From Actinomycetota bacterium (lineage in GTDB: Bacteria; Actinomycetota; CADDZG01; WHSQ01), in contig WHSV01000006.1 of assembly GCA_009379915.1 (NCBI GenBank), positions 279-64,278 on the forward strand: a stretch of 64,000 bases of DNA, read 5' to 3'. Of this stretch, positions 8,209-26,967 are shown piece by piece. Under the pieces are notes generated by a model that saw nothing but the letters and a program-made list of their open reading frames with translations, did no database searches and was not told the DNA's origin. The translations under genes and the position numbers were made by a program. Position 1 is the stretch's first letter. Every line of letters starts with the position of its first letter.

Positions 8209-8237
8209 ACCGTACGCTCCCGCGCGCGGCCTGTCAA
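8209..8237 (-). promoter_or_regulatory. candidate promoter TTGACA-17-TACGGT for the MerR/gcvT operon
   Basis: Minus strand: TTGACA (8237-8232), a 17-nt spacer, then TACGGT (8214-8209). This lies about 65 nt upstream of ATG 8144. Confidence 0.4.
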
Positions 8238-8335
8238 CGACAACCTTCATTGTTGACTGAAGAGTTCAGCCAAGTATCAACGTCAGGGCGCGCGTTAGGA
8301 GACCAAATTCACGCGAACGAGCCGGGAGGAGGGGT

Positions 8336-8815: not shown

Positions 8816-8834
8816 GCGTCCGAAACTAACACCG

Positions 8835-9431: not shown

Positions 9432-9435
9432 CCCG

Positions 9436-10614: not shown

Positions 10615-10645
10615 ATAGATATACCTACTTGGACAGAAGTTGATC
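10603..10645. repeat. two adjacent ATTTGTCGAC-family boxes
   Basis: The sequence acttatcgacaaatagatatacctacttggacagaagttgatc fills the MerR-stop to dac-start spacer and overlaps the dac TTG start. Confidence 0.55.
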
Positions 10646-11361: not shown

Positions 11362-11829
11362 CTACCCTCCCGAGAGGAAAACGAGCTTGAACTTGCCGAT
11401 CTGAACCTCGTCCCCCGAACGCAGATCGGTGGACTCGACCCGTTCGCGGTTGCTATAGGTCCCGTTGAGGCTTCCGACATCGTGCAGTGAGAACGACTCG
11501 CCCATCCTGCGGATCTCGGCGTGACGCCGGGACACCGTGATGTCGTCGAGGAAGATCTCGCTCTCGGGGTGGCGGCCGATCGACGTCGTGTCGGAGTCGA
11601 TGAAGAACTTGCTCCCGGCGTTGGGGCCGCGCTTGACGATCAGGACTCCCCGTCCACCCTCGAGCTCGTCCGGCGAAATGTGAACCTCTTCCTCCAGATC
11701 CGCCTCTAGCTCACCGGGCATGAACGTGATCGTCGTATCCGAGTTCTTGGCGTCGGCCAACGGCGCGCCACAGGACGAGCAGAAGTTGGCGCCCTCGGGG
11801 TTCTTGTGACCACAGTTCGTGCAGTACAT
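11362..11829 (-). CDS. FHA domain protein with N-terminal zinc ribbon
   Basis: ORF 11362..11829. It starts MYCTNCGHKNPEGANFCSSCG, followed by an FHA core IGRHPESEIFLDDITVSRRHAEI...DVGSLNGTY. Its stop abuts the MerR start. Confidence 0.88.
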   Translation of the reverse strand: MYCTNCGHKNPEGANFCSSCGAPLADAKNSDTTITFMPGELEADLEEEVHISPDELEGGRGVLIVKRGPNAGSKFFIDSDTTSIGRHPESEIFLDDITVSRRHAEIRRMGESFSLHDVGSLNGTYSNRERVESTDLRSGDEVQIGKFKLVFLSGG

Positions 11830-11838
11830 GGGCGTGAA

Positions 11839-11866
11839 GCTATACCGCTACTTTAGGGTTAGTCAA
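11839..11866 (-). promoter_or_regulatory. candidate promoter TTGACT-16-TATAGC (near-leaderless FHA gene)
   Basis: Minus strand: TTGACT (11866-11861), 16 nt, then TATAGC (11844-11839). The ATG at 11829 lies 9 nt downstream. Confidence 0.35.
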
Positions 11867-11873
11867 GCGTGAG

Positions 11874-11890
11874 CCCCCGCCCGGCGGGGG
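11874..11890 (-). terminator. hairpin after gcvH
   Basis: CCCCCGC-ccg-GCGGGGG lies 7 nt after the gcvH stop. There is no U-tract. Confidence 0.3.
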
Positions 11891-11896
11891 TGGGCG

Positions 11897-12274
11897 CTAC
11901 TCCGTCAGCTGGCCGTAGGCCTCGGCGTCCATCAACTCGCCCAGGCCCCCCTCGGCCGGTTCGATGACGACGAGCCACCCCTTGCCGTAGGGATCCGAGT
12001 TGATCAACTCCGGGTTCTGCTCGACCGCGAGGTTCTTCTCCGCCACCCTGCCGGTCACCGGGCTGTAGACGTCCGACACCGATTTCGTCGACTCGACCTC
12101 TCCGAGCGGTTCGCCCGCGGTGACCTCGGAACCGGGTTCCGGCAGGCCGACGAACACCACGTCACCCAACTGGTCCTGCGCGTAGTAGGTGATCCCGACC
12201 ACGATGCGACCCCCATCGTCCTTCGCCCACTCGTGCTCGGCCGTGTACTGCCTGTCATCCGGCAGTTGCGCCAC
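11897..12274 (-). CDS. gcvH: glycine cleavage system H protein
   Basis: ORF 11897..12274. YTAEHEWA and the lipoyl-lysine context GEVESTKSVSDVYSP are present. AAGGAG lies upstream of the GTG start. Confidence 0.93.
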   Translation of the reverse strand: MAQLPDDRQYTAEHEWAKDDGGRIVVGITYYAQDQLGDVVFVGLPEPGSEVTAGEPLGEVESTKSVSDVYSPVTGRVAEKNLAVEQNPELINSDPYGKGWLVVIEPAEGGLGELMDAEAYGQLTE

Positions 12275-12325
12275 CCGGCTCTCCTTTCGCCTCGCTCAAC
12301 GATCTCCTTCGAACCCTCTCCATCA

Positions 12326-12343
12326 ACATGTCGACAAATCGTC
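12326..12343. repeat. ATTTGTCGAC-family box
   Basis: The sequence acatgtcgacaaatcgtc lies about 55 nt upstream of the gcvH start and overlaps the stop of the upstream gene. Confidence 0.6.
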
Positions 12344-14861
12344 AAGCCGACTCGTCGACAGCATTCGCCACGACTCGATCGACGAGGTCAGCGTAGTCCT
12401 CGGCGAGCGCCGCTGCCTCGTGCTGTGACGATGCCTCGGCCCAGATCGTGCACCGGGGCTCGTCCGGGGATGGAATTACGAGGACCCAGCGATCATCCTC
12501 GACGATCTTGACGCCGTCGAGCAGCACCTGCCGGCCGTGCTTGGCCCGCATTGCGACCTCGCGCATGACCGTTCCCTTTTGTTGCCAGGGTGTTCTCACC
12601 GTGCGCCTGACCAGATGGCTGTCGGGCAGGGCCCCGAGCAGGTCGGACAGCGGTTTGCCCGCGGTGACCCTCAGCTCGAGGGCCTTGCAGAAGGTCATCA
12701 TCGCATCGGAGGCCGGCATGAAATGAGGCCAAATCAGCGTCCCCTCGGTGTCCCCCGCGAAATCGACCTCCACGCGCTGCGCCTGAGCCATGAGAGCGGG
12801 GAGACCGGTGGGCGTCCACTGCAGGGGCACGCCGGCGTCTGCGGCCAGCCGCTCCGCCAGAAAAGGCGCCGACACCGGAACTGCGACCGTGCGCGCCCCT
12901 CTCTGCACCTCGTGCTGGAGAAAGGCCAGGAGGGCTTGCCCCTGCGTCACGGGGTTGCCCCGGTCGTCGATGAGGTGCGCTATCTCCCCTCCCGGCTCGA
13001 GGACCACGCCGAGGTCCGAGCCGGACTTTTTCACGTGCTCGCTGACGGTCTCGATCAACCGGTCGATCTCGGCGCTGCCGAGCACCGGCCTGTGCTCGTC
13101 GGTGAACGCGTTGACCGACAGGGCCTGGACCCCCAGACGCCCCAGGACCGATGTCCCCACCCGGGACGCCGCCCCGTAGGCGTAGTCGATCACGACCTTC
13201 AGGTGTGCAGACCTGATGACGTCGAGTTCGACCGACCTGAGGAGCCCCGTCGAGTAACCACCTAGGGCGTGGGCGGGAAACTCCAGCTCTCCGAGCCGCT
13301 GGGCGCCGGGCCTCCGAAAGTCCTCTCGGAAGAAGAGCCTGTCGATCTTTCGCTGTGTGCTCTCGTCGATATCGGCGCCCTCGGAGTCGAACAGCCGTAT
13401 CTGAACGACCTCGGAATCCTCGTTGGATGTTCTGACGCTGATGCCCCCGGCGGCCTGCTCGGTGCCCACGGTGAAGCGGGTGACCGGCAACGCCATCAAC
13501 TCGAGGTCGTGACAGGTGACCCCCGTCGAGGTCAGCCCCGCGATGAGGGCGCGCTTTATCGTGCGCGCGGCCCGGCTGGCGTCCCGGCCCAGCACCACGG
13601 TGCTGTTGCGCGGGAGCATCGTTCCGTAGGCCATGCCAAGGCGCACCGCGACCTGCGGCGTCATCCCGATGTTGACCAGGCCCGATACGCCTCTGGCCCC
13701 GAAGAGGCTGCGACTCGCCCTTCGCTCGCGCACGATGCTCTCGGTAACGATCGCCCCGGCCTCGACCGTGCGCAAAGGGTAAACCTTCACTCCAGGCTTG
13801 ATCAGCGCGCCCGAGCCCACCACGACCTCGTCGCCGAGGACCGCCCCTTCCTCGACCGTCGATCCCCGCCCGAGCGATGAGCCCCGGCCCAAAACGGACC
13901 CGCGCACCTGCGATCCCGGGCCCACGTGCCCCGCTTCCATCACGACTCCGCCCACGACCGACGCCTCGGCCCCCACGATCGCGTGATCGCCGATGACCGC
14001 TCCGCCCTCGATGCGCGCGTTCGGACCCACGCGGCAGTTGTCGCCTATCACCGCAGGTCCGGTGATGACGGCCGAGTCATCGATGTCGACGTCCTCGCCG
14101 ACCCAGACGCCCGGCTCCAGCTCGAACCCCGGCATGTCGACCTCGACCCTGCCCTCGACCGCGTCGAGCTGCGCCTGCAGGTAGGCCTCCGCGTTTCCGA
14201 CGTCGGTCCAGTAGTCGTCGGTGATGAACCCGAATATGGGAAGGCCGTCCGCGAGCATCCGGGGAAAGAGCTCGGAGGAGAAGTCATAGGGGCGGTCGTC
14301 CGGGATGAGGTCGAGCACTTCGGGCTCGAGGACGTAGATGCCGGTGTTGACGGCATCCGAGAAGACCTGTCCCCACGACGGTTTCTCGAGGAAGCGCTCG
14401 ATCCTGCCGTCGGGTGCGGTCATGACGATGCCGAACTCCAGTGGGTCCGGCATCCGCTTCAAGACCAGAGTGGCCGCCGCCTCGCGCTCTTGATGCCACG
14501 CGAGAGCACGACCGAGGTCCAGATCGGTCAACGCGTCCCCGGAGATGACGAGGAAGCGTCCCGTGAGTAGGTCCCGCGCCCCCAGAACCGAACCGGCGGT
14601 TCCAAGTGGCACGTCTTCCGTGGCATAGGCCAGGGAGACGCCCATGTCGGAGCCGTCGTCGAAATAGTTGCGAATTACCGAGGAGAGGAACTGAACCGTG
14701 GCGACGACGTCGGTGATTCCGTTGCGTCGCAGGAGATCCACGATGTGCTCCATCAAGGGCCGGTTCGCCACGGGGAGCATCGGCTTCGGCAGGTTGCTCG
14801 TCAGCGGTCGAAGCCGCGTGCCCTCGCCCCCCGCCATTACCACCGCCTGGAGGTCGCTCAC
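12342..14861 (-). CDS. bifunctional sugar-1-phosphate nucleotidyltransferase / phosphomannomutase
   Basis: ORF 12342..15182 trimmed to the GTG at 14861 (GTGA overlap with the upstream stop). It has an N-terminal MAGGEGTRLRPLT, a left-handed beta-helix repeat region, and a C-terminal phosphohexomutase-like part. Confidence 0.85.
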   Translation of the reverse strand: MSDLQAVVMAGGEGTRLRPLTSNLPKPMLPVANRPLMEHIVDLLRRNGITDVVATVQFLSSVIRNYFDDGSDMGVSLAYATEDVPLGTAGSVLGARDLLTGRFLVISGDALTDLDLGRALAWHQEREAAATLVLKRMPDPLEFGIVMTAPDGRIERFLEKPSWGQVFSDAVNTGIYVLEPEVLDLIPDDRPYDFSSELFPRMLADGLPIFGFITDDYWTDVGNAEAYLQAQLDAVEGRVEVDMPGFELEPGVWVGEDVDIDDSAVITGPAVIGDNCRVGPNARIEGGAVIGDHAIVGAEASVVGGVVMEAGHVGPGSQVRGSVLGRGSSLGRGSTVEEGAVLGDEVVVGSGALIKPGVKVYPLRTVEAGAIVTESIVRERRASRSLFGARGVSGLVNIGMTPQVAVRLGMAYGTMLPRNSTVVLGRDASRAARTIKRALIAGLTSTGVTCHDLELMALPVTRFTVGTEQAAGGISVRTSNEDSEVVQIRLFDSEGADIDESTQRKIDRLFFREDFRRPGAQRLGELEFPAHALGGYSTGLLRSVELDVIRSAHLKVVIDYAYGAASRVGTSVLGRLGVQALSVNAFTDEHRPVLGSAEIDRLIETVSEHVKKSGSDLGVVLEPGGEIAHLIDDRGNPVTQGQALLAFLQHEVQRGARTVAVPVSAPFLAERLAADAGVPLQWTPTGLPALMAQAQRVEVDFAGDTEGTLIWPHFMPASDAMMTFCKALELRVTAGKPLSDLLGALPDSHLVRRTVRTPWQQKGTVMREVAMRAKHGRQVLLDGVKIVEDDRWVLVIPSPDEPRCTIWAEASSQHEAAALAEDYADLVDRVVANAVDESA

Positions 14862-15451
14862 GCTCCCGTCCCCTCCGAGGCTCGCTCCTGCGCGATCGGC
14901 TCCTTGATCCTCGAATAGGCGACGCGCGCGTACATCCCCGCGGACAGGTAGTACAGGACGGCACCGGCCCCGACAAACACCATCCCGACGATCTCGGAGA
15001 AAGACGCCCAACCAAAATCCGTCTCCGACAGGGCGAGCCACGTAAGACCGAAGAACAGAGAGGCGGTCGCCGTTTTGCCGATGAAGTTCACCTGGACCCG
15101 CCCCACTCCGCGGCGCTCGAAGAGGGGCCAGACTCCCAGGAGCACGATGTCCCGAAGAACGATCGCAGCCGCGAGCCACCACGGAAGGGCGTCGACCGCA
15201 ACGAGCGCGAGCGCAAGGGCGATGATGAAGACCCTGTCGGCGAGCGGGTCGAGAAGCTTTCCGGCCTCAGATACCTGGCCGAGGCGACGCGCCAAGTACC
15301 CGTCGAAGAAATCGGTCCACGCGCCCGCTGCGTACAGAATCACGGCCGCTTCCTCGCGACCGGTTACGAACAGGTACAGGAATACGGGAACGGTGGCGAG
15401 CCGAATCACCGAGAGAACGTTCGGAACCGTGAGAACCCGATCGGTCACCAC
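14858..15451 (-). CDS. CDP-alcohol phosphatidyltransferase
   Basis: ORF 14858..15451. The family motif DFFDGYLARRLGQVSEAGKLLDPLADR is present. The position is pgsA-like. Confidence 0.88.
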   Translation of the reverse strand: MVTDRVLTVPNVLSVIRLATVPVFLYLFVTGREEAAVILYAAGAWTDFFDGYLARRLGQVSEAGKLLDPLADRVFIIALALALVAVDALPWWLAAAIVLRDIVLLGVWPLFERRGVGRVQVNFIGKTATASLFFGLTWLALSETDFGWASFSEIVGMVFVGAGAVLYYLSAGMYARVAYSRIKEPIAQERASEGTGA

Positions 15452-15521
15452 GGCTCCCTCCGTAAAGCTCGTCTATCGATGTCCACGCCCTTGGTGCTGG
15501 GATGGCGCCCGTCGTTCGGAG

Positions 15522-15596
15522 TCGGGACGGCCGGATTTGAACCGGCGACCCCTGGTCCCCCAGACCAGTGCGCTAACCAAGCTGCGCCACGTCCCG
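15522..15596 (-). tRNA. tRNA-Pro (anticodon GGG)
   Basis: A hand-folded cloverleaf on the minus strand has acceptor CGGGACG/CGTCCCG, D arm GCGC..GCGC, anticodon stem CTGGT/ACCAG with loop CTGGGGG, and T arm GCCGG-TTCAAAT-CCGGC. The discriminator is A and no CCA is encoded. Confidence 0.9.
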
Positions 15597-15604
15597 AAGC
15601 GGCC

Positions 15605-15634
15605 ATCATAACCGGGGCCTTTCGGCGGGCCCAA
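15605..15634 (-). promoter_or_regulatory. candidate tRNA-Pro promoter TTGGGC-18-TATGAT
   Basis: Minus strand: TTGGGC (15634-15629), 18 nt, then TATGAT (15610-15605). The -10 ends 8 nt before the mature tRNA 5' end. Confidence 0.4.
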
Positions 15635-15640
15635 TCCGAC

Positions 15641-15662
15641 TACTTATCTACAAATCGATAAG
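15641..15662. repeat. ATTTGTCGAC-family box variant (CTTATC-N8-GATAAG)
   Basis: The sequence tacttatctacaaatcgataag lies immediately upstream of the predicted -35 of the tRNA-Pro promoter. Confidence 0.55.
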
Positions 15663-15808
15663 ACTCTTCATTGCCAAGTGGATAAGGGGATGTGTGACCA
15701 AGTGGACGACCGAACCGAGCCGACGAGCGCCGCCATCCTGCAGGACCCGTCCGCAGCCCGCGGAGCGGACCTCCGCCGCCCGCCGGAGAAGACTTGCCTC
15801 AGCTTGAT

Positions 15809-17149
15809 CTAACCCTTACGCTCACGTCTAGCCTTTACGCGCACCTCTATGCGCAGGGGGCTTCCGGGGAACGCCTCGGTTGCCCTCAGGCGATTCTCGA
15901 GGTAGCGCCGGTAGCCGGTGTCGAGCCTGCCGTTGCTGAACACCACCACCGTCGGAGGAGAGGACTGCGCCTGCACCGCATAGAGAATGCGGATGGCGCG
16001 ACCACCGGTCCGCGGGTGGGGCTGCTGAGCCTGGGCATCGCGCACCAGCCGGTTCACGAGCGCGGTGGGAAGGCGACGCCGGTGAGATGCGATGGCCTCG
16101 GCCAACTTTGGAACCAGCTTGTCGATTCCCCTGCCCGTCAGGGCGTTCGTTCTCACGTGCGTCGCCCAGGTCAGGAACCGGAGTTTCTGAAGCACGGCAA
16201 CATCGATCCGCTTGCGGTCGGTCTCCTCAAGGGGGATCTTGTCCCACTTGTTCAGCGCGATGACACAGGCTCGCCCGTGCTCGACGATCTCTTGCGCGAG
16301 GTGCTGATCGTGGGTCGTGACCCCCTCCCCCACGTCGATCACGAGCAGCGCCACATCCACCCGTGCGAGAGTCCGGCGCGAACGGATCAGGCTGAAGTAC
16401 TCGATCGGATCCTTTATCTGAACCTGCCGGCGCATCCCGGCCGTGTCAACGATGCGCAGCTGCCTGCCATCGGGCAACCTCATGTGCGCGTCGACCGGGT
16501 CCCTGGTCGTCCCCGGTATCGAGTCGACGATCGACCGCTCCTGGCCGGTCAGGGCATTGAGGATCGAGGACTTGCCGACGTTGGGCCGTCCAATGATAGC
16601 AACCGCCCCCCACGCATCGTCTGCGTCTCGATCGACTTCGGGCAGGGCGGCGACGAGCGCCTCGAGGAAGTCTCCGGAGCCTCGACCGTGCAACGCCGAC
16701 AGAGGCCGTGGCTCGCCGAGCCCAAGTCTAAAGAAGGCCGCGGCCAGGGGCTCGTCGGCGGGGTCGTCCACCTTGTTGGCTGCCACGACGACCGGCTTCC
16801 TCGACTTGCGCAACAGGTCCGCGACGATGAGATCGTCTTGGTTCGGCCCGACCGACGCGTCCACCACGAGAACGATCGCGTCGGCCGCTTCGATCGCGAC
16901 CTGTGCTTGCTCCGCAACTCGAGCGTTCAACCCGTCTGCACCCGGCTCCAGCCCACCCGTATCGACCACCTCGAAGGAGCGACCGTTCCACTCGGTGGCA
17001 AAGTGTTTCCGATCCCGAGTCACGCCCGGCATGGTCTCGACGATCGCCTCACGGCGTCCGAGAATGCGGTTCACGAGCGACGACTTGCCGACGTTGGGCC
17101 GGCCGACGATCGCAACGACCGGCATCCCGGAACGTGTCTCAGTGTTCAT
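15809..17149 (-). CDS. der: ribosome-biogenesis GTPase Der (EngA)
   Basis: ORF 15809..17149 with two GTPase domains (GRPNVGKSSLVNR and GRPNVGKSSILNA) and a KH-like C-terminus. Confidence 0.93.
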   Translation of the reverse strand: MNTETRSGMPVVAIVGRPNVGKSSLVNRILGRREAIVETMPGVTRDRKHFATEWNGRSFEVVDTGGLEPGADGLNARVAEQAQVAIEAADAIVLVVDASVGPNQDDLIVADLLRKSRKPVVVAANKVDDPADEPLAAAFFRLGLGEPRPLSALHGRGSGDFLEALVAALPEVDRDADDAWGAVAIIGRPNVGKSSILNALTGQERSIVDSIPGTTRDPVDAHMRLPDGRQLRIVDTAGMRRQVQIKDPIEYFSLIRSRRTLARVDVALLVIDVGEGVTTHDQHLAQEIVEHGRACVIALNKWDKIPLEETDRKRIDVAVLQKLRFLTWATHVRTNALTGRGIDKLVPKLAEAIASHRRRLPTALVNRLVRDAQAQQPHPRTGGRAIRILYAVQAQSSPPTVVVFSNGRLDTGYRRYLENRLRATEAFPGSPLRIEVRVKARRERKG

Positions 17150-17798
17150 CGATCACGCGGAGGGCCGCGCTCGCTATCTCGTCGACGATCGTTTCGACGT
17201 CCTTACCCGTGGAATCGACTACCACGGCGTCGTTCGCCTTGACGAAGGGCGAAGCCTTGCGTTCGGCGTCCGCCCGGTCCCGTTTCTCGATGCTTCGCGA
17301 GAGCTCCTTCAGGGATTGCTCGTCGGTTGCCAAACCCATTTGGCGGGCGCGTCGCCGGGCCCGCTCCTCCTTGGAAGCCGTGAGGAAGATCTTGACGTCC
17401 GCTGTTGGAACGACGGCGGAGCCGATGTCTCTCCCCTCCATGACCAGGTTTCCCGCATCCGCCCGAGCGCGCTGCATCGCCGCCATGGCGCGGCGAACCC
17501 CATCTACCGCGGCGACCTTCGACACGGCCGCGGTAACACCCGGCCCCCGTATGAGCTCCGAGACGTCCCGTCCATCCAGTTTGACGACGTCCCCCCGGAG
17601 ATCGATATCGACGGACTCGGTGAGTGCCGTGAGAGCAGCGGCGTTGGCGAGGTCTGTTCCGCTCTCGAGCGCCGCGAGGGCCAGGGCCCGGTACATGGCT
17701 CCGGTATCGAGGTACTCGAATCCGAGGCGGTCTGCGACCGCGCGCGCAATCGTGCTCTTGCCCGCCCCCGCGGGGCCGTCGATCGCGATGACGCTCAC
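17139..17798 (-). CDS. cmk: cytidylate kinase
   Basis: ORF 17139..17867 trimmed to the GTG at 17798 (GTGA overlap with the aroA stop). VIAIDGPAGAGKSTIARAVA is the P-loop. The product is 219 aa. Confidence 0.9.
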   Translation of the reverse strand: MSVIAIDGPAGAGKSTIARAVADRLGFEYLDTGAMYRALALAALESGTDLANAAALTALTESVDIDLRGDVVKLDGRDVSELIRGPGVTAAVSKVAAVDGVRRAMAAMQRARADAGNLVMEGRDIGSAVVPTADVKIFLTASKEERARRRARQMGLATDEQSLKELSRSIEKRDRADAERKASPFVKANDAVVVDSTGKDVETIVDEIASAALRVIDEH

Positions 17799-19111
17799 CC
17801 GTATCTTCCCTGTGCGCGCCCAAGCAGATCGAGAAACTCGGGGAACGAGGTGCTCACGCTGCTCCACCCCTTCACCACGACGGGCTCCTCGGAGCGCAAC
17901 CCCGCCACCGCGAACGACATCGCGGCGCGATGGTCGCCGCGCGCGTCCACCTCGGCACCCTTGAACACCGAGGGCCCCCGAATCCGCATCCCATCCGGCT
18001 CTGGACTGCAGTCAACCCCGAGCTCCCGAAGTCCTGTACACATGACATCGATTCGATCCGACTCCTTCACGCGCAACTCCTGGGCGTTCCGGATGAGCGT
18101 CTCTCCCTCGGCACAGGAGGCCAGCACGGCAACCACCGGAAGTTCGTCGATCAGAGTGGGTATCTCCTCGGCGCCTTCGATGGTCGTTCCGGTGAGCTCC
18201 GAGCCGCGCACGCTCACGTCCCCGAACGGCTCATCGAATCGTTTTCCGGCGACCCGAACGTCGATCTCGGCCCCCATCCTGGACATCACGTCGAGGAGTC
18301 CCGTCCGGCTCGGATTCAGTCCCAGGTTGGTGATCGTGAGATCCGAACCGTCGACGATCGCCGCGGCCACGAGAAGGAACGCGGCCGACGAGATGTCCCC
18401 GGGGACGTCCCAGGTCATCGCCGACAGGGCAGGGGTGGGTTCGAGGCGGATCCGGTTGCTCTCAACGCGAAGCCTCGCTCCCGCGGCGGCGAGCATCCGC
18501 TCGGTGTGGTCCCGGCTCGCGCCCGGCTCGATGAGCGTCGTGGGCCCGGTGGCGTGGAGGCCGGCGAGCAGAACGGCCGTCTTGACCTGCGCGCTCGCAA
18601 TCGGTAGCCGCAGATCGACGCCCGATAGGTCGCCGCCTCGGATGGCGAGCGGAGCCCGGTCGCCGAAAGCACGGCCCTCGATCCGCGCCCCCATCTGCCG
18701 GAGCGGAGCGACCACTCGCAGCATGGGCCGCCGGAGGAGGGTGGCGTCCCCCGTCACCACGGACAGACCCTCGACTCCCGCGCAGAGCCCGAGAATCGTG
18801 CGCATCGTGGTTCCGGAATTGCCCGCATCGAGAACGTGCTCGGGCTCTCTCAAGCCGCCCACTCCCCTACCCTCAACCTCAACCTGATAGTTTGCCTCGT
18901 CGGAGGTGATGGCCGCTCCGAGCAACTCCAGAAGGGATGCGGTCGCGCGGCAGTCCTCACCGAGGTTCGCGTTGGCCACGAGCGACCGTCCGCTCGCGAG
19001 GCTCGAGATCATGAGCGCCCTATGCGTGATGGACTTGTCGCCCGGAACCTCGAGAGTTCCCCGCAGGGGTGACGGGGCGGGCGAGGAACGCCACAGTCGT
19101 CTTATCGACAT
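17795..19111 (-). CDS. aroA: 3-phosphoshikimate 1-carboxyvinyltransferase (EPSP synthase)
   Basis: ORF 17795..19111. It contains LEVPGDKSITHRALM and LGNSGTTMR-type motifs and is 438 aa. Confidence 0.93.
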   Translation of the reverse strand: MSIRRLWRSSPAPSPLRGTLEVPGDKSITHRALMISSLASGRSLVANANLGEDCRATASLLELLGAAITSDEANYQVEVEGRGVGGLREPEHVLDAGNSGTTMRTILGLCAGVEGLSVVTGDATLLRRPMLRVVAPLRQMGARIEGRAFGDRAPLAIRGGDLSGVDLRLPIASAQVKTAVLLAGLHATGPTTLIEPGASRDHTERMLAAAGARLRVESNRIRLEPTPALSAMTWDVPGDISSAAFLLVAAAIVDGSDLTITNLGLNPSRTGLLDVMSRMGAEIDVRVAGKRFDEPFGDVSVRGSELTGTTIEGAEEIPTLIDELPVVAVLASCAEGETLIRNAQELRVKESDRIDVMCTGLRELGVDCSPEPDGMRIRGPSVFKGAEVDARGDHRAAMSFAVAGLRSEEPVVVKGWSSVSTSFPEFLDLLGRAQGRYG

Positions 19112-19133
19112 GGCTCGTTGTCTACTTGTCTAC
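19101..19133. repeat. box variants including the tandem octamer TTGTCTAC x2
   Basis: The sequence is cttatcgacatggctcgttgtctacttgtctac. The TTGTCTAC copies lie at 19118-19125 and 19126-19133, directly upstream of the aroA ATG (19111). Confidence 0.5.
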
Positions 19134-19145
19134 TCATTGCCTTCT

Positions 19146-20255
19146 CTAGATATCTACTTCGCTTCGCTCCACCCTGTAACCCAGGCTCATCAACGCCCCG
19201 ACCAGGGATTCCGCCTTGGCGGGACCGGATACGACGAGCTCCAACCGCCCCTGGCCCCCCTCGGTGGAGTGGACGATGCGAAGGTCCTCGAGGTTGGCTC
19301 CGAGCCGGCCGGCGGCCGTCGTCACCTCCGCGAGCACTCCCGGGCGGTCGGGCACCATCAGGGTAAGGCCAACCGGCTCGCCTCCGAAGTCGGGCTTGGC
19401 GAAGACGTCGAGCCGGGCCCTGCGAGAGCGGTCGAGCCACGACCGCAGCTCGTCCCAGTGCTGGCGCGCGATCATCGAGCTCACCGCCTCGAGGCGGTGA
19501 CCGAGGCCGGCAAGACTCTCGAGTACCGCTTGATGGTTCGATCGAATGATGGCGACCCACAGGTCCGGGTTGCTCGCGGCGATGCGGGTCACATCGCGGA
19601 ACCCGCCGCCCGCGAGACCGAGCAGAGCCTCCCGGTCGCCGGCTGCCAGCGCGACATCCACGAGAGCGCTGGCGGTCAGCTGGGGAAGGTGGCTGAGACG
19701 CGCGACCAGTGCGTCGTGAGTCGACGGATCGAGTGCGACGGGCCGGGCGCCGAGAGAAACAACCACCGATGTCACGGTCGAATATGCCTTCGATGCCGTG
19801 ATGGACGTCGGGGTCACGATCCACCAGGCGTCGTCGAACAGATGCTCGCTCGCCGCGTCGATCCCATGTCGCTCCGACCCCGACATCGGGTGACCGCCGA
19901 CGAAGGCTGCGCCCAGACACCGCTCTCCCGCGGCGACTACCTCCACCTTCGCGCTCCCCACATCGGTCACGATCGCACCGGGGGCCACGTACGAGGCGAT
20001 GCGCTCGAGCACGCCGGGGATGAGATCGACGGGGGTGGCAACCACTACCAGATCCACCCCGCCGGCCGCGTCCTCGAGGGAATCGGCCGCCCCGCCGATC
20101 GCGCCGCACTCGAGCGCGCCGGCCACCGCCTGCGGGTTCACGTCGAAGCCCACGACCCGGTCGACCCCCGCTCGCTTTCTGAGTCCGAGTCCGATCGACC
20201 CTCCGATCAATCCCAGACCGACGATCCCGACGCGGCCGAGCGCCGCGGCGACCAT
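19146..20255 (-). CDS. tyrA: prephenate dehydrogenase with C-terminal ACT-like domain
   Basis: ORF 19146..20423 trimmed to MVAAALGRVGIVGLGLIGGSIG (ATG 20255), which carries a Rossmann GxGxxG motif. Confidence 0.88.
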   Translation of the reverse strand: MVAAALGRVGIVGLGLIGGSIGLGLRKRAGVDRVVGFDVNPQAVAGALECGAIGGAADSLEDAAGGVDLVVVATPVDLIPGVLERIASYVAPGAIVTDVGSAKVEVVAAGERCLGAAFVGGHPMSGSERHGIDAASEHLFDDAWWIVTPTSITASKAYSTVTSVVVSLGARPVALDPSTHDALVARLSHLPQLTASALVDVALAAGDREALLGLAGGGFRDVTRIAASNPDLWVAIIRSNHQAVLESLAGLGHRLEAVSSMIARQHWDELRSWLDRSRRARLDVFAKPDFGGEPVGLTLMVPDRPGVLAEVTTAAGRLGANLEDLRIVHSTEGGQGRLELVVSGPAKAESLVGALMSLGYRVERSEVDI

Positions 20256-20674: not shown

Positions 20675-20694
20675 GCTTGTCGACAAATCTACCT
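20675..20694. repeat. ATTTGTCGAC-family box
   Basis: The sequence gcttgtcgacaaatctacct ends 4 nt upstream of the aroH TTG start. Confidence 0.6.
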
Positions 20695-20768: not shown

Positions 20769-20784
20769 GTCTTGTCGACAAGTA
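20769..20784. repeat. box with the perfect 12-bp palindrome CTTGTCGACAAG
   Basis: The sequence is gtcttgtcgacaagta, with the palindrome at 20771-20782, about 10 nt after the rluB stop. Confidence 0.6.
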
Positions 20785-21535: not shown

Positions 21536-22095
21536 GCGTTCGGGGAGAGCTTGGCCTCCATGTCTCCGACCTCCTCCGCGCTGGGCATGAACTCCACCAG
21601 CGGAGGCAGGTCGTCGACCGATTTCAGGCCCATACGCTCGAGAAACTCGTCGCTGACGGCGAACAGGACCGGGGCTCCCGGAGTGGAATCGTGGCCCGAC
21701 TCCCTGATCAGCCCACGCTGAAGCAGTGTCTTGACGACCCCGTCGGAGTCCACACCCCGAACCTCGGTGATCTGCGTACGCGACAGCGGACCCCTGTAGG
21801 CGATGACGGCCAGGACCTCCAGCGCCGCACCCGTGAGGCGGGAGTGGGAGTGACGCAGCACGAATCGCTCGAGCCAGGGGGCGCACTCCGGACTGGTGTA
21901 GAGACGCCAGCCCCCGGCCGTCTCGCGCAGCAGGAACCCACGGTCGTCGTCCTCGTAGTCGTTGGCCAGCTCCGCAAGCAGTCCCTCGACCTCGGCGCTG
22001 GGCCTCTCGAGGACCTCTCCGACGACGCGCGCCGGCACCGGCTCGTCGGCCAGCAACAGGATCGACTCGATGATCTTGCGCTCGGGAACGATCAC
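21532..22095 (-). CDS. scpB: segregation and condensation protein B
   Basis: The 21532..23259 frame was trimmed to the GTG at 22095 (AAAGGAGG lies 7 nt upstream, GTGA overlap with scpA). IIESILLLADEPV...LEVLAVIAYRGPLSRTQITEVRGV is present. Confidence 0.9.
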   Translation of the reverse strand: MIVPERKIIESILLLADEPVPARVVGEVLERPSAEVEGLLAELANDYEDDDRGFLLRETAGGWRLYTSPECAPWLERFVLRHSHSRLTGAALEVLAVIAYRGPLSRTQITEVRGVDSDGVVKTLLQRGLIRESGHDSTPGAPVLFAVSDEFLERMGLKSVDDLPPLVEFMPSAEEVGDMEAKLSPNA

Positions 22096-22886
22096 GATTG
22101 AGCCTCCTTTTGTAGGTCGGTGGTGTACTCCTCTGCCCCCTCGACCACGTCTTCGGCCGCCACCTCGTCCGTCCACAGGGCCCGGATCTCCCCAAAGCGG
22201 TCGTCTTGCGAGAGCTCGATCGCCCCCGCCTTGAACAGTTCGAGTAGGGCGAGGAAGCGGACCACGACTTCGATCCGTTCCCGGGTGGCGGCGCAGAGAT
22301 CGGCGAACGCCACCGGACCACCGATTTGAAGCGCGGCCGAGATGTCGCCGATGGCATCCTTCACGGACGCGGTGATGGGCGTCACGTGCGAGGTGTCGAG
22401 TACGACTTGAGGCTTGGGGGCCAGCGCGAGGGCGGCCGCCGATGCCAGGTCGGCCGGCGATACCTTCGCCAGGAGGTCTGGAGCCAGACGAACGAACTGC
22501 GGCTCGAGCCCCGCCGTCCGCGCGAAGTAAACGGCGCCCTTCTCCAAGCCCACCGCGATGCTGGCCCCCGCCTCTCTCAGAGTCGACAGCTCGACCAGAC
22601 GGGCCAGGAGCAGGTCGCGCTCCTCGAGCAGCTGGCTGTCGGCGTCGTCGAGGGACTGCGCCGGTAAGAGCCGGGCCGATTTGAGCTCGAGCAGCGTCGC
22701 CGCCACCACCAGGAACCCGGTTGCGGATTCGAGATCGAGGTCCTCGAGCTCCCCCACGACCCCCAGGTACTCCTCGGTGATCGTGGAGATGGAGACCTCG
22801 TAGATGTCGACCCGCTGGCGCGTTATGAGGTGCAGGAGCAGGTCTATCGGGCCCTCGAACACCTCCAACTTGACCTCGTACGCCAT
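22092..22886 (-). CDS. scpA: segregation and condensation protein A
   Basis: ORF 22092..22886. LEVFEGPIDLLLHLI is the ScpA kleisin N-terminus. Confidence 0.9.
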   Translation of the reverse strand: MAYEVKLEVFEGPIDLLLHLITRQRVDIYEVSISTITEEYLGVVGELEDLDLESATGFLVVAATLLELKSARLLPAQSLDDADSQLLEERDLLLARLVELSTLREAGASIAVGLEKGAVYFARTAGLEPQFVRLAPDLLAKVSPADLASAAALALAPKPQVVLDTSHVTPITASVKDAIGDISAALQIGGPVAFADLCAATRERIEVVVRFLALLELFKAGAIELSQDDRFGEIRALWTDEVAAEDVVEGAEEYTTDLQKEAQS

Positions 22887-22922: not shown

Positions 22923-22955
22923 ACATGTCGACAAATGTACTTGTAGACAAATCTG
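22923..22955. repeat. two tandem ATTTGTCGAC-family boxes
   Basis: The sequence is acatgtcgacaaatgtacttgtagacaaatctg. GTCGACAAAT lies at 22927-22936 and GTAGACAAAT at 22943-22952 (16-nt phase), about 40 nt upstream of the scpA ATG. Confidence 0.6.
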
Positions 22956-24799: not shown

Positions 24800-25087
24800 G
24801 GCTCCACTAGAGTGTTAGGGTTGTCGGCATGGAGCTTCCCTCGGCCGGGCTGCATGCGAGAAGGTGGGGTCCCCTAGTTGGCGGCTGCGCCGCGAGATGC
24901 CGTCCCCGACTCCACCCGCACGCTCCAGAGGCGACCCCGGCCGCACCCCGCGGCCGTCCCCGGCAGGCGCGCGCCGTCCACCCGGTTCCGCCGCTCTTCG
25001 GTTTGCTCCTCCCGACCGGCGCCGGGGCAGCAGAGGGCCCTGCTTCCCGGGGTCGATCCGCGGAAGATCGACTAGGTGTGGACCATT

Positions 25088-25116
25088 CATCGACTTGTCC
25101 ATATGGCTACAAATGG
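25088..25116. repeat. box-like cluster around the palindrome CCATATGG
   Basis: The sequence catcgacttgtccatatggctacaaatgg contains TTGTCCATA and, on the other strand, ATTTGTAGCC. Confidence 0.45.
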
Positions 25117-25190
25117 CTTTGTGCCTCCCGTTTGCGGTTGGTTCTCCCTGCTCACAGGGCGAGTCCACTAGTCGCTTCGACCACATGGCG

Positions 25191-25238
25191 TCTTGTCGCC
25201 AAGTAGATATCTCGCCTAATCCAACTGTAGACATGTCG
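25191..25238. repeat. box-like cluster
   Basis: The sequence tcttgtcgccaagtagatatctcgcctaatccaactgtagacatgtcg contains TCTTGTCGCCAAGTAGA and TGTAGACATGTCG. Confidence 0.45.
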
Positions 25239-25566
25239 TTACCGCTCCAGACCTCATGCCCGCCTCGGCCTCGGCGCCGCCCCTCGAATGAGCTCGGGAC
25301 CCCGGGGGGCCATTGCCGGACCGGCGCGGCATGACGGCCCCAGCGGCGACGCCGACCCACGTCCCCGCGCTGCGGTTCTCGGCGCCCGCCGTCGCCGGGG
25401 TGACCCGGGCTCGCCAGTCGAGGTTCCCGGTGCTCGGGCGCACGTCCCCCGGCGGGAGCCAGAGGAACCACCATAAGTCTCGACTTTAGCCTTATACTTC
25501 ACTCCACGCTCGGTCCGCCCTTTGCGCGGGTCGCTCAGGAGCGACGGGCCTCGCGATCCCGGGAAC

Positions 25567-25600
25567 CAAAAGGGGGCCGACCACCACGCCGGCCCCCTTT
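25567..25600 (-). terminator. intrinsic terminator of the parA-like/RHH operon
   Basis: On the minus strand, GGGGGCCGG-cgtggtg-GTCGGCCCCC is followed by TTTTGG, 14 nt after the stop at 25614. Confidence 0.6.
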
Positions 25601-25613
25601 CGATCGAGGTCGT

Positions 25614-25991
25614 TCAGTCGTTCAACTTCCGAAGCAGGACCGAGTCCTCCCCGCGCGCGCCGAAGTCCTCGAGGACATATGCCACGGCCGCCCTCACGAT
25701 CCGGCCGCGGTCCGCGGAGAGGCCGTAGGCGGCCCTCAGCTCGAGCCTGGTCCGCTCTATCGCCATGAGATCGTCGGGCGTGCAATAGAACGTGATCTTC
25801 TCCTCGTGCTTGGGCGCCTTGGGCTTGGGAGCCGTCTCCGGCGCCGCTTCGGACACCGGCGTGGCGACTTGTAGCTTTGTCGACTTGGCGTCTTGCATAC
25901 TTGTCTCTGAACTGGGACGTGTTTCTCTGGGTCGGTCCGAGGTCTTTCGGAAGAGCTCCTCAGCTCCGGGCAAACTGGCTCGACGAGACAC
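25614..25991 (-). CDS. small protein with a disordered N-terminus and putative ribbon-helix-helix C-terminal domain
   Basis: ORF 25614..25991. The GTG start is preceded by AAGGAGG at 9 nt, inside the parA 3' end. KITFYCTPDDLMAIERTRLELRAAYG..RGRIVRAAVAYVLED reads as strand-helix-helix. Confidence 0.6.
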   Translation of the reverse strand: MSRRASLPGAEELFRKTSDRPRETRPSSETSMQDAKSTKLQVATPVSEAAPETAPKPKAPKHEEKITFYCTPDDLMAIERTRLELRAAYGLSADRGRIVRAAVAYVLEDFGARGEDSVLLRKLND

Positions 25992-26880
25992 GCTCCATCA
26001 CCTCCTTGGCGAGTTTTCTATAGGCGGCCGCCCCATGAGAGCTCGGGGCGTACGACAGGATCGGCTGCCCCGCAACCGGGGCCTCCGCGAATCGAATGGT
26101 CTTGCGCACGACGGTGTCGAACAGCTTGTCTCCAAAGGCGTCCTCGACCGTGCTGAGGACCTCCTTGCTGTGGAGCGTGCGGCGGTCGAACATCGTCGCT
26201 ATGATTCCATCAACGTGAAGTCGAGGGTTAAGGCGCTCCTGCACGACCCCTATCGAGTGCATGAGCTGCGCCATCCCTCTCAGGGCGTAGTACTCGCACT
26301 CGAGCGGGATGATGACCCCGTCGGCCGCGGTCAGGGAGTTCACCGTCAGCAGGCCCAGCGACGGCATGCAGTCGATGAAGATGAAGTCGTAGCGCGACCT
26401 CAGCGGAGCGAGCACCCGCAAGAGCGACTGTTCCCTCGCCACCTCGCCGGAGAGCATGAGCTCGGCGGCCGAGAGGTCGATGTTCGAGGGCAGCAGATCC
26501 AGGTCCTCGATCTGCGTGTGAATAATTGCGTCATCGGTCTCGGCATCTCGATCCAGGAGGCAGTTGTAGATGGTGACCTCGAGCTCGTCCGGCTGGTAGC
26601 CGAGCCCGATCGCGCAGCCTCCCTGAGGATCGAAGTCGACCAGGAGCACCTTCTGGCCCAGGTCAGCAAGCCCCGCCCCCAGGTTGATGGCCGAGGTCGT
26701 CTTGCCCACCCCCCCCTTCTGGTTGGCGAGGGCGATGATGCGAGCGGTGCGTGCCGGATCATCGTCTGCGATCAGGTCGAGGCCCGGTGGGGTCGGCCGT
26801 GGCTCCTCCGGCGACTCTGCACCCCGAGGCTCCTGAGCCCCGAGCACCTGAGTGGTTCCGTACCGGTGTGACTCCTCCAT
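25960..26880 (-). CDS. ParA/Soj-family ATPase (Rv1708/PldP-like position)
   Basis: ORF 25960..26880. It has the deviant Walker A NQKGGVGKTTSAINL, DFDPQGG, and IIPLECEYYALRG. Confidence 0.9.
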   Translation of the reverse strand: MEESHRYGTTQVLGAQEPRGAESPEEPRPTPPGLDLIADDDPARTARIIALANQKGGVGKTTSAINLGAGLADLGQKVLLVDFDPQGGCAIGLGYQPDELEVTIYNCLLDRDAETDDAIIHTQIEDLDLLPSNIDLSAAELMLSGEVAREQSLLRVLAPLRSRYDFIFIDCMPSLGLLTVNSLTAADGVIIPLECEYYALRGMAQLMHSIGVVQERLNPRLHVDGIIATMFDRRTLHSKEVLSTVEDAFGDKLFDTVVRKTIRFAEAPVAGQPILSYAPSSHGAAAYRKLAKEVMERVSSSQFARS

Positions 26881-26904
26881 CCAGCCTCCCTGGGGTCGTC
26901 ATAG

Positions 26905-26922
26905 ATACTTGTCGACAAATCA
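26905..26922. repeat. ATTTGTCGAC-family box
   Basis: The sequence atacttgtcgacaaatca lies 25 nt upstream of the parA-like ATG and downstream of the candidate promoter. Confidence 0.6.
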
Positions 26923-26938
26923 CCTTGTGGGCCGCCGG

Positions 26939-26967
26939 AGCGTATCCCGAAAAGACCCTCCCTACAA
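26939..26967 (-). promoter_or_regulatory. candidate promoter TTGTAG-17-TACGCT
   Basis: Minus strand: TTGTAG (26967-26962), 17 nt, then TACGCT (26944-26939). Confidence 0.3.

Follow-up and report, generated by a model that had tools for sequence, protein, structure and literature searches.

A gene coupled to the ParA2/PldP-type ATPase of Actinomycetota and a palindromic box at their shared promoter: a candidate partner for an "orphan" ParA

ParA-type ATPases and their small partners

In the type Ib partition system of plasmid TP228 (ParF-ParG-parH), the gene for a small ParA lacking a helix-turn-helix (HTH) domain is followed by that for a small protein, ParG, in which a flexible N-terminal tail with a basic motif stimulates its ATPase and the C-terminal part has a strand-helix-helix order (PMC7308502); the tail of SegB acts likewise (PMC7308502, PMC8682754). 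ParG has two places of action: an operator in front of the operon that encodes it, and an array made up of short repeated sub-sites (PMC7308502). The locus described here shares both the gene order and the protein layout, its partner sites being candidate ones. It differs in that the pair is chromosomal, in that the partner lacks a detectable sequence relation to ParG, and in that its target would be a 14-bp palindrome dispersed over 16 kb, whereas TP228 parH is one compact centromere. Sulfolobus, too, has a ParA-type ATPase on its chromosome, SegA, with a small partner: SegB is a site-specific ribbon-helix-helix (RHH) protein that stimulates the ATPase through an unstructured N-terminus and of which multiple dimers build higher-order DNA complexes (PMC8682754). 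SegAB, however, belongs to another domain of life, and sequence and profile searches of the PDB with the partner studied here recovered nothing relevant.

The sites of omega from plasmid pSM19035 lie in several promoters and double as operators and centromeres. Unlike the direct 9-nt or 7-nt repeats of the pCXC100 and pSM19035 delta-omega systems, the sites described below are palindromes and half-sites, and they are chromosomal. With the canonical ParA-ParB-parS systems the locus shares a Soj-like ATPase; however, Pfam and NCBIfam searches find neither a ParB/Srx nor an HTH domain in the partner, and no parS (TGTTTCACGTGAAACA) occurs within 3 mismatches in the 64,000-nucleotide stretch of DNA analyzed (hereinafter the window), which sets the locus apart from the canonical ParB/parS class.

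The ATPase is of the same kind as PldP of Corynebacterium glutamicum, Rv1708/MSMEG_3743 of mycobacteria and ParA2 (SCO1772) of Streptomyces, with which it shares the neighborhood xerD...parA2...scpA-scpB-rluB-cmk-der. ParA2 has been described as present in all actinobacteria (PMC4255298); ParA2/PldP/Rv1708 affects division-site placement and is called an "orphan" in the literature, its partner and cargo not being known. Nevertheless, the gene of the ATPase is directly followed by a partner gene in the window and also in Streptomyces, Frankiales, Pseudonocardiales and Nanopelagicales. In Mycobacterium and Corynebacterium we take scpA to be the gene directly after it. This conserved, coupled gene, whose product is laid out like a ParA adaptor, is a concrete candidate partner for the "orphan" ParA2, and the question is directly testable in Streptomyces, an organism with routine genetics and imaging that carries it as the SCO1771-type gene.

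The parA2 gene and its coupled partner gene

The two genes and their signals lie in the window as follows:
26939-26967, minus strand: promoter-like pair of the parA2-partner operon (TTGTAG 26967-26962, 17-nt spacer, TACGCT 26944-26939), read from the sequence
26890-26885, minus strand: Shine-Dalgarno motif GGGAGG of parA, ahead of the ATG at 26880
25960-26880, minus strand: parA2/PldP-type ParA/Soj ATPase gene (306 aa, ATG at 26880)
26007-26001, minus strand: Shine-Dalgarno motif AAGGAGG of the partner gene, within the parA codons (A)KEV and 9 nt ahead of the GTG
25614-25991, minus strand: partner gene (125 aa, GTG start, 32-nt overlap with parA)
25564-25605, minus strand: intrinsic terminator hairpin immediately past the stop codon of the partner gene (RNA folding energy –36.3 kcal/mol, z = –4.1)

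The product of parA2 has a deviant Walker A motif, NQKGGVGKTT, which conforms to KGGxGK[ST] with the signature lysine, and it matches both profile models (Pfam AAA_31, 1.9e-62; CbiA, 8.6e-22) and ParA/Soj structures in the PDB (1.3e-66 to 1e-51, residues 46-297); it is thus a Soj-like member of the ParA/MinD (deviant Walker A) ATPases. A 45-aa N-terminal extension lies outside every Pfam and PDB match, and no HTH domain was detected with either resource. The gene order in the window (xerD, dksA-like, deoB, parA, partner, a gene-free island, M50, trpS, scpA, scpB) is the same in two relatives (L001 and L002), and Streptomyces has the order ald, parA2, partner, scpA, scpB, rluB. By synteny, then, this is the positional ortholog of ParA2/PldP/Rv1708, namely the second parA-like gene between xerD/ald and scpA-scpB-rluB; its place near xerD and scpAB bears out the Rv1708/PldP-like position assigned to it in a preliminary description of this DNA. 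The candidate promoter named there is likewise found at 26967-26939; a simple sigma-70 scan gives it no score, because its –10 element is of the high-GC type.

The same description had taken the two genes to be translationally coupled, and the 32-nt overlap, the AAGGAGG inside the 3′ end of parA and the GTG start agree with this. The Shine-Dalgarno arrangement is the same in L001, and the overlap of 32 nt recurs in L001 and L002 and is implied for most of the clade's loci by tblastn coordinates, with a range of 16–32 nt across loci. A check for co-occurrence, as that description had proposed, showed the partner gene directly after the ParA gene by scpAB in all 79 of the 79 species-level genomes having upstream DNA, to which the count was confined, and the same adjacency in five Streptomyces loci.

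High-GC genomes hold many spurious open reading frames, and the 125-aa frame might be a chance one overlapping the 3′ end of parA in such a genome. We regard this as vanishingly improbable, and conservation refutes it: the gene has thousands of homologs with the same start, its amino acids are strongly conserved alongside synonymous variation, its Shine-Dalgarno motif and overlap are conserved, its GC3 is 0.78 and it has a confident domain model. Searches recovered 1,379 homologs at E≤0.01, all beginning (M/V)SRRASLPG; the family forms 433 clusters at 50% identity and at least 7,989 at 90% identity, whose members are all named "hypothetical" or misnamed. Despite these thousands of members, it has no name and no Pfam or NCBIfam model, and neither database gave a domain match for the partner. 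Literature searches for SCO1771, SCO1770, a ParA2 partner and ParH/HaaA recovered no description of it. As judged from homologs and gene order, the parA2-partner pair is a very widespread actinobacterial module and no local oddity.

One terminator follows the partner gene, and 4 relatives have a hairpin in this position too, with stems that differ in sequence. A centromere-protein-type gene directly downstream of an HTH-less small ParA is the type Ib layout; however, the pair lies among chromosomal housekeeping genes and not on a plasmid or mobile replicon, and since tblastn against 72,556 plasmids recovered no partner homolog, nothing connects it directly with the type Ib systems of plasmids.

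Three parts of the partner protein

The partner consists of a short conserved peptide, a linker and a C-terminal domain, of which the first and last are encoded at:
25941-25991, minus strand: N-terminal peptide MSRRASLPGAEELFRKT (17 residues, basic/hydrophobic)
25617-25808, minus strand: C-terminal strand-helix-helix-helix domain (residues ~62-125)

Across 56 diverse members the N-terminal peptide, RRxSLPGAxELFR, is nearly invariant (P8 and F14 in all; R4, L7, A10, E12, L13 and R15 in ≥90%). The N-termini of ParB proteins carry a basic-x-LG(R/K)GLxAL(I/L) peptide, which RRxSLPGAxELF appears to recall. The 17 residues are the likely contact with ParA2 and may act as an ATPase-stimulating tail. 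The disordered linker, which varies in length and gives proteins of about 100 to 300 aa, would join this peptide to the DNA-binding module.

An AlphaFold2 monomer of residues 57-125 (pLDDT 94.4, pTM 0.76) has a high-confidence extended segment at 62-71 (HEEKITFYCT) followed by helices at 72-89, 95-116 and 118-124, and thereby agrees with the strand-helix-helix order that had been read in the C-terminal 50 residues. The strand alternates polar and hydrophobic residues (hydrophobic at 66, 68 and 70), so that the model has the RHH order of elements, an alternating strand and two helices over ~45 residues. The residues invariant in the family, K65, T67, Y69, D94, R95 and R100, sit at RHH-type DNA-contact positions. 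This domain of ~65 residues most likely dimerizes as an RHH-like DNA-binding module.

The further step of the preliminary description, which likened the protein to RHH centromere-binding proteins, was not borne out by any significant match. Pfam RHH models hit 3 of the 56 members (RHH_3 in 2, best E 0.079; RHH_1 in 1, E 0.031) and NCBIfam RHH models none. Against approximate RHH sequences, hhalign placed strand and helices in register without significance (P 0.09–0.1), and 6 of 14 such sequences reached p<0.05 in hmmsearch when compared with shuffled versions of themselves. The full-length model, half of which is a disordered chain, gave no Foldseek match for that reason. With the domain, the best meaningful PDB match, ranking second, was 3no7_A, the RHH protein ParB of pCXC100 from Leifsonia, itself of the Actinomycetota (TM 0.51/0.57, rmsd 3.2 Å over 53 columns, with a non-significant E of 3.4); unlike it, the partner has a longer helix 1 and a third helix. 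Against BFVD the best matches were unnamed proteins of 60–68 aa (E 0.32, probability 0.94, TM 0.69), with a CopG-named one at rank 24. All Foldseek E-values exceed 0.3, for models that are monomers, in which the ribbon cannot form. As no profile or fold search was significant, membership of the RHH superfamily is plausible but unproven.

The palindromic box and its candidate binders

Boxes and related sites were located in the window at:
26907-26928, minus strand: operator-like element (half-site ACAAG 26928-26924 and 14-bp box ATTTGTCGACAAGT 26920-26907)
25867-25886, minus strand: box-like DNA AAGTCGACAAAGCTACAAGT inside the partner gene (codons 36-42, K-S-T-K-L-Q-V)
25085-25235, minus strand: conserved core of the gene-free island, with the box ACTTGGCGACAAGA at 25204-25191 and further ACAAG/CTTGT half-sites
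22923-22936 and 22939-22952, minus strand: two boxes 16 bp apart, 39–59 nt upstream of scpA (22092-22886)
20675-20688 and 20770-20783, minus strand: two boxes upstream of the chorismate mutase (aroH) cluster
19124, minus strand: box ahead of aroA
15642, minus strand: box ahead of a tRNA gene
12326, minus strand: box ahead of gcvH-FHA-MerR, conserved in close relatives
10603, minus strand: box ahead of a D-Ala-D-Ala carboxypeptidase gene, conserved in close relatives

In this lineage, the palindrome ACTTGTCGACAAGT is found at the promoter of the pair itself and across a 16-kb zone downstream of it. At the promoter, the 14-mer ACTTGTCGACAAAT matches exactly at 26907-26920 on the plus strand; a box had previously been drawn at 26905-26922, and its place between the promoter and the parA start stands while both of its limits lay 2 nt too far out. 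The operator-like element is predicted to fall at about +4 to +22 of the parA2 transcript. The core of the box (≤1 mismatch) precedes parA in 64 of 66 non-redundant relatives at 1.4–2.0 bits per position, the consensus of the whole element being aCaaGg.GAcTTGTCGACAAGT. In 56/66 relatives a –10-like TANNNT begins 22–26 nt ahead of the first base of the box, and over the 66 a Shine-Dalgarno-like motif most often begins 18–20 nt after the box, as fits the autoregulatory operator that had been suggested. Searches of Rfam gave no match in the parA leader or in the island.

The box-like repeats that had been noted in the 5′ region of the partner gene and in the adjacent island are both real. Within the gene, at 25867-25886, the synonymous positions are frozen on rare codons: ACA encodes T38 in 43/45 sequences, against 0–3 of about 51 at other conserved threonine codons; CTA encodes L40 in 36/45, against 0–2 of about 51 at eight other leucine codons; and CAA encodes Q41 in 42/45. 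This site is thus under selection at the nucleotide level. In the island, alignment of the relatives shows conservation of the 25085-25235 block, which holds the box at 25191-25204, and of nothing else, and boxes are roughly 20-fold enriched in the islands of relatives.

Over the window as a whole, 1.3 occurrences of the 10-bp core with ≤1 mismatch are expected and 8 are present (0/100 shuffles reached 8); for the 14-mer with ≤3 mismatches 2.1 are expected, and there are 20 strand matches, which make up 12 distinct sites. Eleven of these 12 fall within 16.3 kb (simulation p about 1e-4), in a one-sided zone of ~16 kb that starts exactly at the promoter of the partner operon and includes scpAB; the zone boxes beyond those of aroH together span 10603-19137. 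Of the relatives, 30/57 have a box within the 250 nt preceding scpA (median distance 36 nt), and 23/41 have one ahead of the CM_1 gene. Boxes and half-sites are spaced 8 and 16 bp apart. RHH arrays are reported with 9-nt repeats for pCXC100 ParB (PMC3074162) and with tetramer boxes and spacers for ParG (PMC7308502), a range within which these spacings fall.

As an explanation of the whole, to which we give a probability of about one in two, ParA2 works with a coupled three-part adaptor that sits on the boxes. The partner is the leading candidate for the box binder, and the palindrome would be its most likely DNA target in this lineage. The box at about +13 of the operon's own promoter would mediate autorepression, and further targets would be the site inside the partner gene, the island past the terminator, and scpAB and other operons over the 16 kb downstream. 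Partner dimers on the boxes may tune transcription of parA2 and scpAB and, when bound there, may give nucleoid-bound ParA2-ATP specific anchor points, in the manner of ParG, omega, pCXC100 ParB and archaeal SegB. Against this stands the observation that boxes also precede unrelated operons (gcvH, dacB, a tRNA and the aro genes), one of which encodes a MerR-family regulator.

That observation favors the main rival for the box, a separate local transcription factor that co-regulates parA2, scpAB, aro, gcvH-FHA-MerR and dacB; the partner would still serve ParA2, its C-terminal domain binding non-specific DNA, SMC-ScpAB or a divisome component. The MerR-family protein encoded at 10645-11361 would be one candidate binder, the boxes before its operon and other unrelated ones being conserved in close relatives, and mycobacterial Rv1708 is reported to interact with ScpA and ParB (PMC10482377). 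Such a factor would also suit a partner family that is far more widespread than the box and whose invariant strand residues are unchanged where the box vanishes. We hold this to be rather unlikely, as by far the best-conserved box is that of the parA2-partner promoter (64/66; scpA has 30/57 and aroH 23/41), as selection at synonymous sites keeps a box-like element inside the partner gene, and as the sites cluster beside this gene from its own promoter onward. Classical MerR-type operators lie between –35 and –10, whereas the parA2 box is downstream of the –10. A metagenome scan with the MerR-family protein found the neighboring boxes conserved, a result that does not discriminate between the candidate binders.

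A further alternative is that the partner is an autoregulatory RHH-type repressor and nothing else, or an adaptor that does not bind DNA, so that the boxes form an ordinary regulon with no centromere-like role and ParA2 acts independently of them. The operator geometry at the parA2 promoter would suit it, as would the position of almost all boxes near promoters, 7–60 nt ahead of start codons. However, neither a conserved peptide on a disordered tether nor a translation strictly coupled to that of a ParA ATPase is easily explained for a plain repressor; the sites inside the gene and in the island lie away from promoters, and strongly one-sided clustering over 16 kb is unusual for a regulon. We accordingly consider this alternative improbable.

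The distribution of the box across lineages bears on the adaptor reading from another side. Among loci with enough upstream DNA whose partner strand reads K[IV]TFYCT (with one KVTYYCT variant), all have the box except L002 and L059, whose best matches carry 2 and 3 mismatches; loci with KITVY[CLV]S all lack it. In Streptomyces, Planktophila and other KITVY[CLV]S lineages, neither the box nor another palindrome occurs before parA2 at ≤1 mismatch, and the equivalent 5′-UTR position in Streptomyces has a TATCGATAA or TATCTAGAAG element, once per locus only. This covariation of box and strand motif rests on few independent transitions, and lineages that have the box do not differ from those that lack it in the putative DNA-facing K65, T67 and Y69; if these invariant residues simply read out the DNA, the same box would be expected in Streptomyces, where it is not found.

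Should the partner bind the boxes, plasmid type Ib systems and archaeal SegAB would have a counterpart on a bacterial chromosome; the box zone offers a ready DNA substrate for this lineage. On a wider and tentative view, most Actinomycetota might have a second chromosomal positioning system without ParB, formed by ParA2 and an RHH-like adaptor, so that PldP/ParA2 would not have been an orphan by ancestry; in the deep-branching lineage studied here, the adaptor might mark, by 14-bp palindromes, the ~16-kb zone from its own promoter across scpAB and so couple locus position, or condensin expression and loading, to ParA2 dynamics and cell division.

The box also differs by one base from the DnaA consensus TTGTCCACA. 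We set aside its identity as a DnaA box because a palindrome points to a dimeric binder; the window has no exact DnaA box, and its excess of DnaA boxes with 1 mismatch consists almost entirely of the palindrome and related sites.

A second ParA with an overlapping, widespread partner gene

The ParA-type ATPase of the window (hereinafter ParA2) is, by its sequence, a standard Soj-type ParA: it matches the Pfam AAA_31 model (1.9e-62), retains the deviant Walker A motif KGGVGKT, and has ParA/Soj proteins as its closest solved structures (1e-66 to 1e-51, residues 46-297); residues 1-45 fall outside all Pfam and structure matches, and no HTH domain was detected. The window gene order is xerD, dksA-like, deoB, parA, partner, gene-free island, M50 protease, trpS, scpA, scpB, rluB, aroH, and the order around parA is repeated on two long contigs of relatives, while five Streptomyces genomes show ald, parA2, small gene, scpA, scpB, rluB. 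This arrangement matches the neighborhood of the actinobacterial second ParA, as the preliminary description had proposed in placing the gene at a PldP/Rv1708-like position near scpAB. The literature names that protein ParA2 (SCO1772), PldP or Rv1708, states that it occurs in all actinobacteria and terms it an orphan (PMC4255298; PMC10482377). The locus, with parA and the other genes under discussion on the minus strand, reads:

25960-26880, minus strand: ParA-like ORF (306 aa)
26007-26001, minus strand: Shine-Dalgarno sequence AAGGAGG, 9 nt 5′ of the partner GTG and made of parA codons for (A)KEV
25614-25991, minus strand: partner ORF (125 aa, GTG start), overlapping parA by 32 nt
25564-25605, minus strand: hairpin terminator at the end of the partner gene (−36.3 kcal/mol, z = −4.1)
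Beside the island, strand opposite to parA: M50 protease gene

The overlap, the GTG start and its AAGGAGG agree with what had been described earlier, and sequence comparisons show a genuine gene with a wide distribution. We recovered 1,379 relatives at E≤0.01, aligned over 100% of the window protein's length; an exhaustive search gave 433 clusters at 50% identity and a profile search at least 7,989 significant clusters, the named entries among the matches listed being all from Streptomyces, and members from Frankiales, Pseudonocardiales and Nanopelagicales came to light in a third search. The pairing holds in the five Streptomyces and in all 79 species-level genomes that have upstream DNA, where parA ends at or just inside the partner start; no partner homologues were found on 72,556 plasmids. 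We found no Pfam or NCBIfam model for the partner and no mention of SCO1771, its Streptomyces counterpart, in the searchable literature; this family of thousands of proteins without a model is new. Its members are named "hypothetical protein" or mislabeled from the ParA neighbor. Several carry the UniRef label "Cobyrinic acid a,c-diamide synthase", the name of the adjacent ParA-type gene and therefore an annotation carry-over.

Among individual database proteins, P0258 (303 aa) joins the C-terminal part of ParA in frame to the partner, and P0124 (Streptomyces sp. NPDC093094, 1514 aa, named "SAV_2336 N-terminal domain-related") bears the partner C-terminal domain at residues 1341-1409, either as a fusion or as an assembly/annotation artefact. 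In one long-read MAG (L010/P0118) both parA and partner look frameshifted.

Three-part layout of the partner and its relation to RHH proteins

Alignments A1-A3 show that partner residues 1-17 read MSRRASLPGAEELFR(K/R)T; even in 56 members sharing only about 40% identity, P8 and F14 never vary, and at least 90% of members retain R4, L7, A10, E12, L13 and R15. A low-complexity linker follows, predicted to be disordered (pLDDT about 50) and of such variable length that the proteins range from about 100 to 300 aa. The C-terminal part (residues about 59-125) contains invariant H62, K65, T67, Y69, D94, R95 and R100, and AlphaFold2, given a diverse alignment of residues 57-125 (pLDDT 94.4, pTM 0.76), models an extended segment with confidence and then helices at 72-89, 95-116 and 118-124. 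The EKITFYCT stretch alternates between polar (K, T, Y, T) and hydrophobic (I, F, C) residues, the pattern of the DNA-reading ribbon of ribbon-helix-helix (RHH) proteins, a ribbon that forms only in the dimer.

The earlier assignment of this domain to the RHH fold stands as to its strand-helix-helix topology; significant similarity to RHH proteins did not emerge from Pfam, PDB, hhalign or Foldseek. At E≤10, Pfam returned RHH_3 for two and RHH_1 for one of the 56 members (E 0.03-0.08), and PDB profile searches gave no relevant match. Comparison by hhalign with CopG or a hand-made RHH alignment kept the strand and helices in register with P about 0.1, and 6 of 14 approximate RHH sequences beat 95% of their own shuffles. 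Foldseek against PDB yielded no significant match, its second-ranked entry being pCXC100 ParB, an RHH protein from an actinobacterial plasmid (TM 0.51/0.57, rmsd 3.2 Å, E 3.4), and the BFVD matches were unnamed small proteins (probability 0.94, TM 0.69, E 0.3). The modeled topology fits RHH; homology is unsupported by these searches, and we lean slightly towards an RHH fold.

A conserved short peptide on a flexible tether before a small dimeric DNA-binding domain is the layout of ParG (PMC7308502) and SegB (PMC8682754), whose N-terminal tails stimulate the cognate ATPases. A ParA ATPase with a small adaptor bearing such a tail is a known kind of system; the novelty is that, in most actinobacterial lineages, the "orphan" ParA2 comes with such a partner.

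A palindromic box at the parA2 promoter and across a 16-kb zone

Upstream of parA we observed the following elements:

26967-26962, minus strand: TTGTAG, followed by a 17-nt spacer
26944-26939, minus strand: TACGCT, followed after 10 nt by an ACAAG half-site
26920-26907, minus strand: 14-mer box ATTTGTCGACAAGT, 3 nt after ACAAG and 16 nt before GGGAGG
4 nt before the parA ATG, minus strand: GGGAGG (sequence reading)

The box thus lies between the promoter-like pair and the parA start, as first proposed, with its span narrowed from 26905-26922 to 26907-26920. Its core TTGTCGACAA is present with at most one mismatch 5′ of parA in 64 of 66 non-redundant relatives, with 1.4-2.0 bits per position and the consensus aCaaGg.GAc-TTGTCGACAA-GT, in which a perfect palindrome of 14 bp, ACTTGTCGACAAGT, is joined by an additional ACAAG half-site lying 16 bp upstream of its equivalent half. 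A −10-like TANNNT begins 22-26 nt upstream of it in 56/66 loci and a Shine-Dalgarno-like motif most often starts 18-20 nt downstream, so that the box would cover approximately +13 to +22 of the transcript, which is where a repressor would sit. We regard it as a conserved operator-like element.

The core occurs eight times in the window with at most one mismatch (1.3 expected) and the 14-mer at 12 distinct sites with at most three (about 2 expected). Eleven of the 12 lie between 10.6 and 26.9 kb (clustering p about 1e-4) and the remaining, weak one at 6.07 kb, with no site in the 37 kb past the parA promoter. Box density in relatives is about 0.03 per kb, the chance level, in the 4.5 kb upstream of that promoter and rises to about 0.3 per kb over the 6 kb downstream. 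Sites before other genes are:

5′ of scpA: a pair of boxes, 16 bp apart
5′ of aroH: two boxes
19124-19137: 5′ of aroA
15642-15655: 5′ of a tRNA gene
12326-12339: 5′ of the gcvH-FHA-MerR operon, kept in close metagenomic relatives
10603-10616: 5′ of dacB (D-Ala-D-Ala carboxypeptidase), kept in close metagenomic relatives

Among relatives, a box lies within 250 nt 5′ of scpA in 30/57 (median 36 nt) and 5′ of the chorismate mutase gene in 23/41, against 1/50 for xerD and none for trpS (0/60), deoB (0/40), dksA-like (0/46) and ald (0/49). The tie of the partner, in the window lineage, to a conserved palindrome zone including scpAB is also new.

The box-like repeats reported in the partner gene and the island were recovered too. 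The only linker stretch conserved in the clade, K-S-T-K-L-Q-V-A, is encoded by AAGTCGACAAAGCTACAAGT (25886-25867, minus strand), which keeps the right half-site GACAA intact and, 8 bp later, has a second ACAAG. ACA encodes T38 in 43/45 sequences (but the other conserved Thr residues in 3, 1 and 0 of about 51), CTA encodes L40 in 36/45 (0-2 at eight other Leu positions) and CAA encodes Q41 in 42/45. These are rare codons in partner genes of the clade, and their fixation reflects selection on the nucleotide sequence. The 800-bp island is mostly unconserved even among close relatives, save for a core of ~150 bp (about 25085-25235) holding a one-mismatch box together with more ACAAG/CTTGT half-sites; the islands of relatives show an about 20-fold enrichment of boxes, and no Rfam family matched the island. 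A −10-like TACAGT starts 25 nt upstream of the island box (25215-25235, minus strand), with the geometry of the parA promoter, suggesting a promoter that reads into the island in the direction of the convergent M50 gene and might give rise to a small or antisense RNA.

Another short palindrome, AGATATCT or TAGATATCTA, adjoins several boxes (about 25205-25214, 19140-19150 and 10617-10625) and may be an additional sub-site. In three distant relatives (L068, L071, L078), TTGTGGAC follows the box 5′ of parA by 6 nt; this element nearly matches the actinobacterial DnaA box in reverse complement, and the window has no exact DnaA box. Window positions 7659-12274 encode gcvH, FHA/zinc-ribbon, MerR-family, carboxypeptidase, phosphoribosyltransferase and bifunctional-nuclease-domain proteins, a cluster that resembles the mycobacterial Rv1826-Rv1830 region.

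The candidate box-binding protein and a proposed mechanism

Whether the partner itself binds the box we place at even odds (about 0.5). In favor, the best-conserved site is the partner's own promoter, where the zone begins; another lies inside the partner gene, with more right after it; and sub-sites are spaced by 8 and 16 bp. Strand motif and box also co-vary: nearly all K[IV]TFYCT loci with a readable motif and enough upstream DNA carry the box, even those as distant as about 40% identity (exceptions, loci L002 and L059), whereas it is absent from all KITVY[CLV]S loci (Streptomyces, Planktophila and one Mycobacteriales MAG). Against this, the covariation reflects few independent events, the invariant outward-facing residues are the same with and without the box, and unrelated operons carry boxes, one encoding a MerR-family regulator. 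Moreover, the Streptomyces UTR has at the equivalent position a single TATCGATAA or TATCTAGAAG element, no repeats of which were found in Streptomyces loci.

The sequence features above are observed, whereas every protein-protein and protein-DNA step of the following mechanism is inferred. ParA2-ATP dimers would bind the nucleoid, given their family and the finding that DNA weakly stimulates the PldP ATPase (bioRxiv 10.1101/2025.07.02.662783). Translational coupling would yield partner and ParA2 in a fixed ratio; the partner would dimerize via its C-terminal domain and occupy the palindromes, repressing the operon at its own promoter and modulating transcription at scpAB and other sites. The tethered N-terminal peptides of the partner would engage ParA2 and set off ATP hydrolysis, rendering the box zone a ParA2-responsive chromosomal landmark. 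The observation behind the preliminary description is confirmed and its interpretation partly supported.

In five Streptomyces species, about 230 nt 5′ of the parA2 start are near-invariant (alignment A8; loci L148:1690-1900, L149-L151, L083); this block matched no Rfam family and may represent either a structured leader or densely packed regulatory sequence. It holds TTGCTG, an 18-nt spacer, TAGAGT and then CGC(C/G)CAAC, a promoter-like element shared with Ca. Planktophila (L075, L076, L080). In both groups the ParA2 N-terminus (V/L)-N-x-S-T-F is encoded by ...TCGACATTT... (L148:1874-1900; L075, about 5132-5160), so that a TCGACA core is again present at the very start of parA2.
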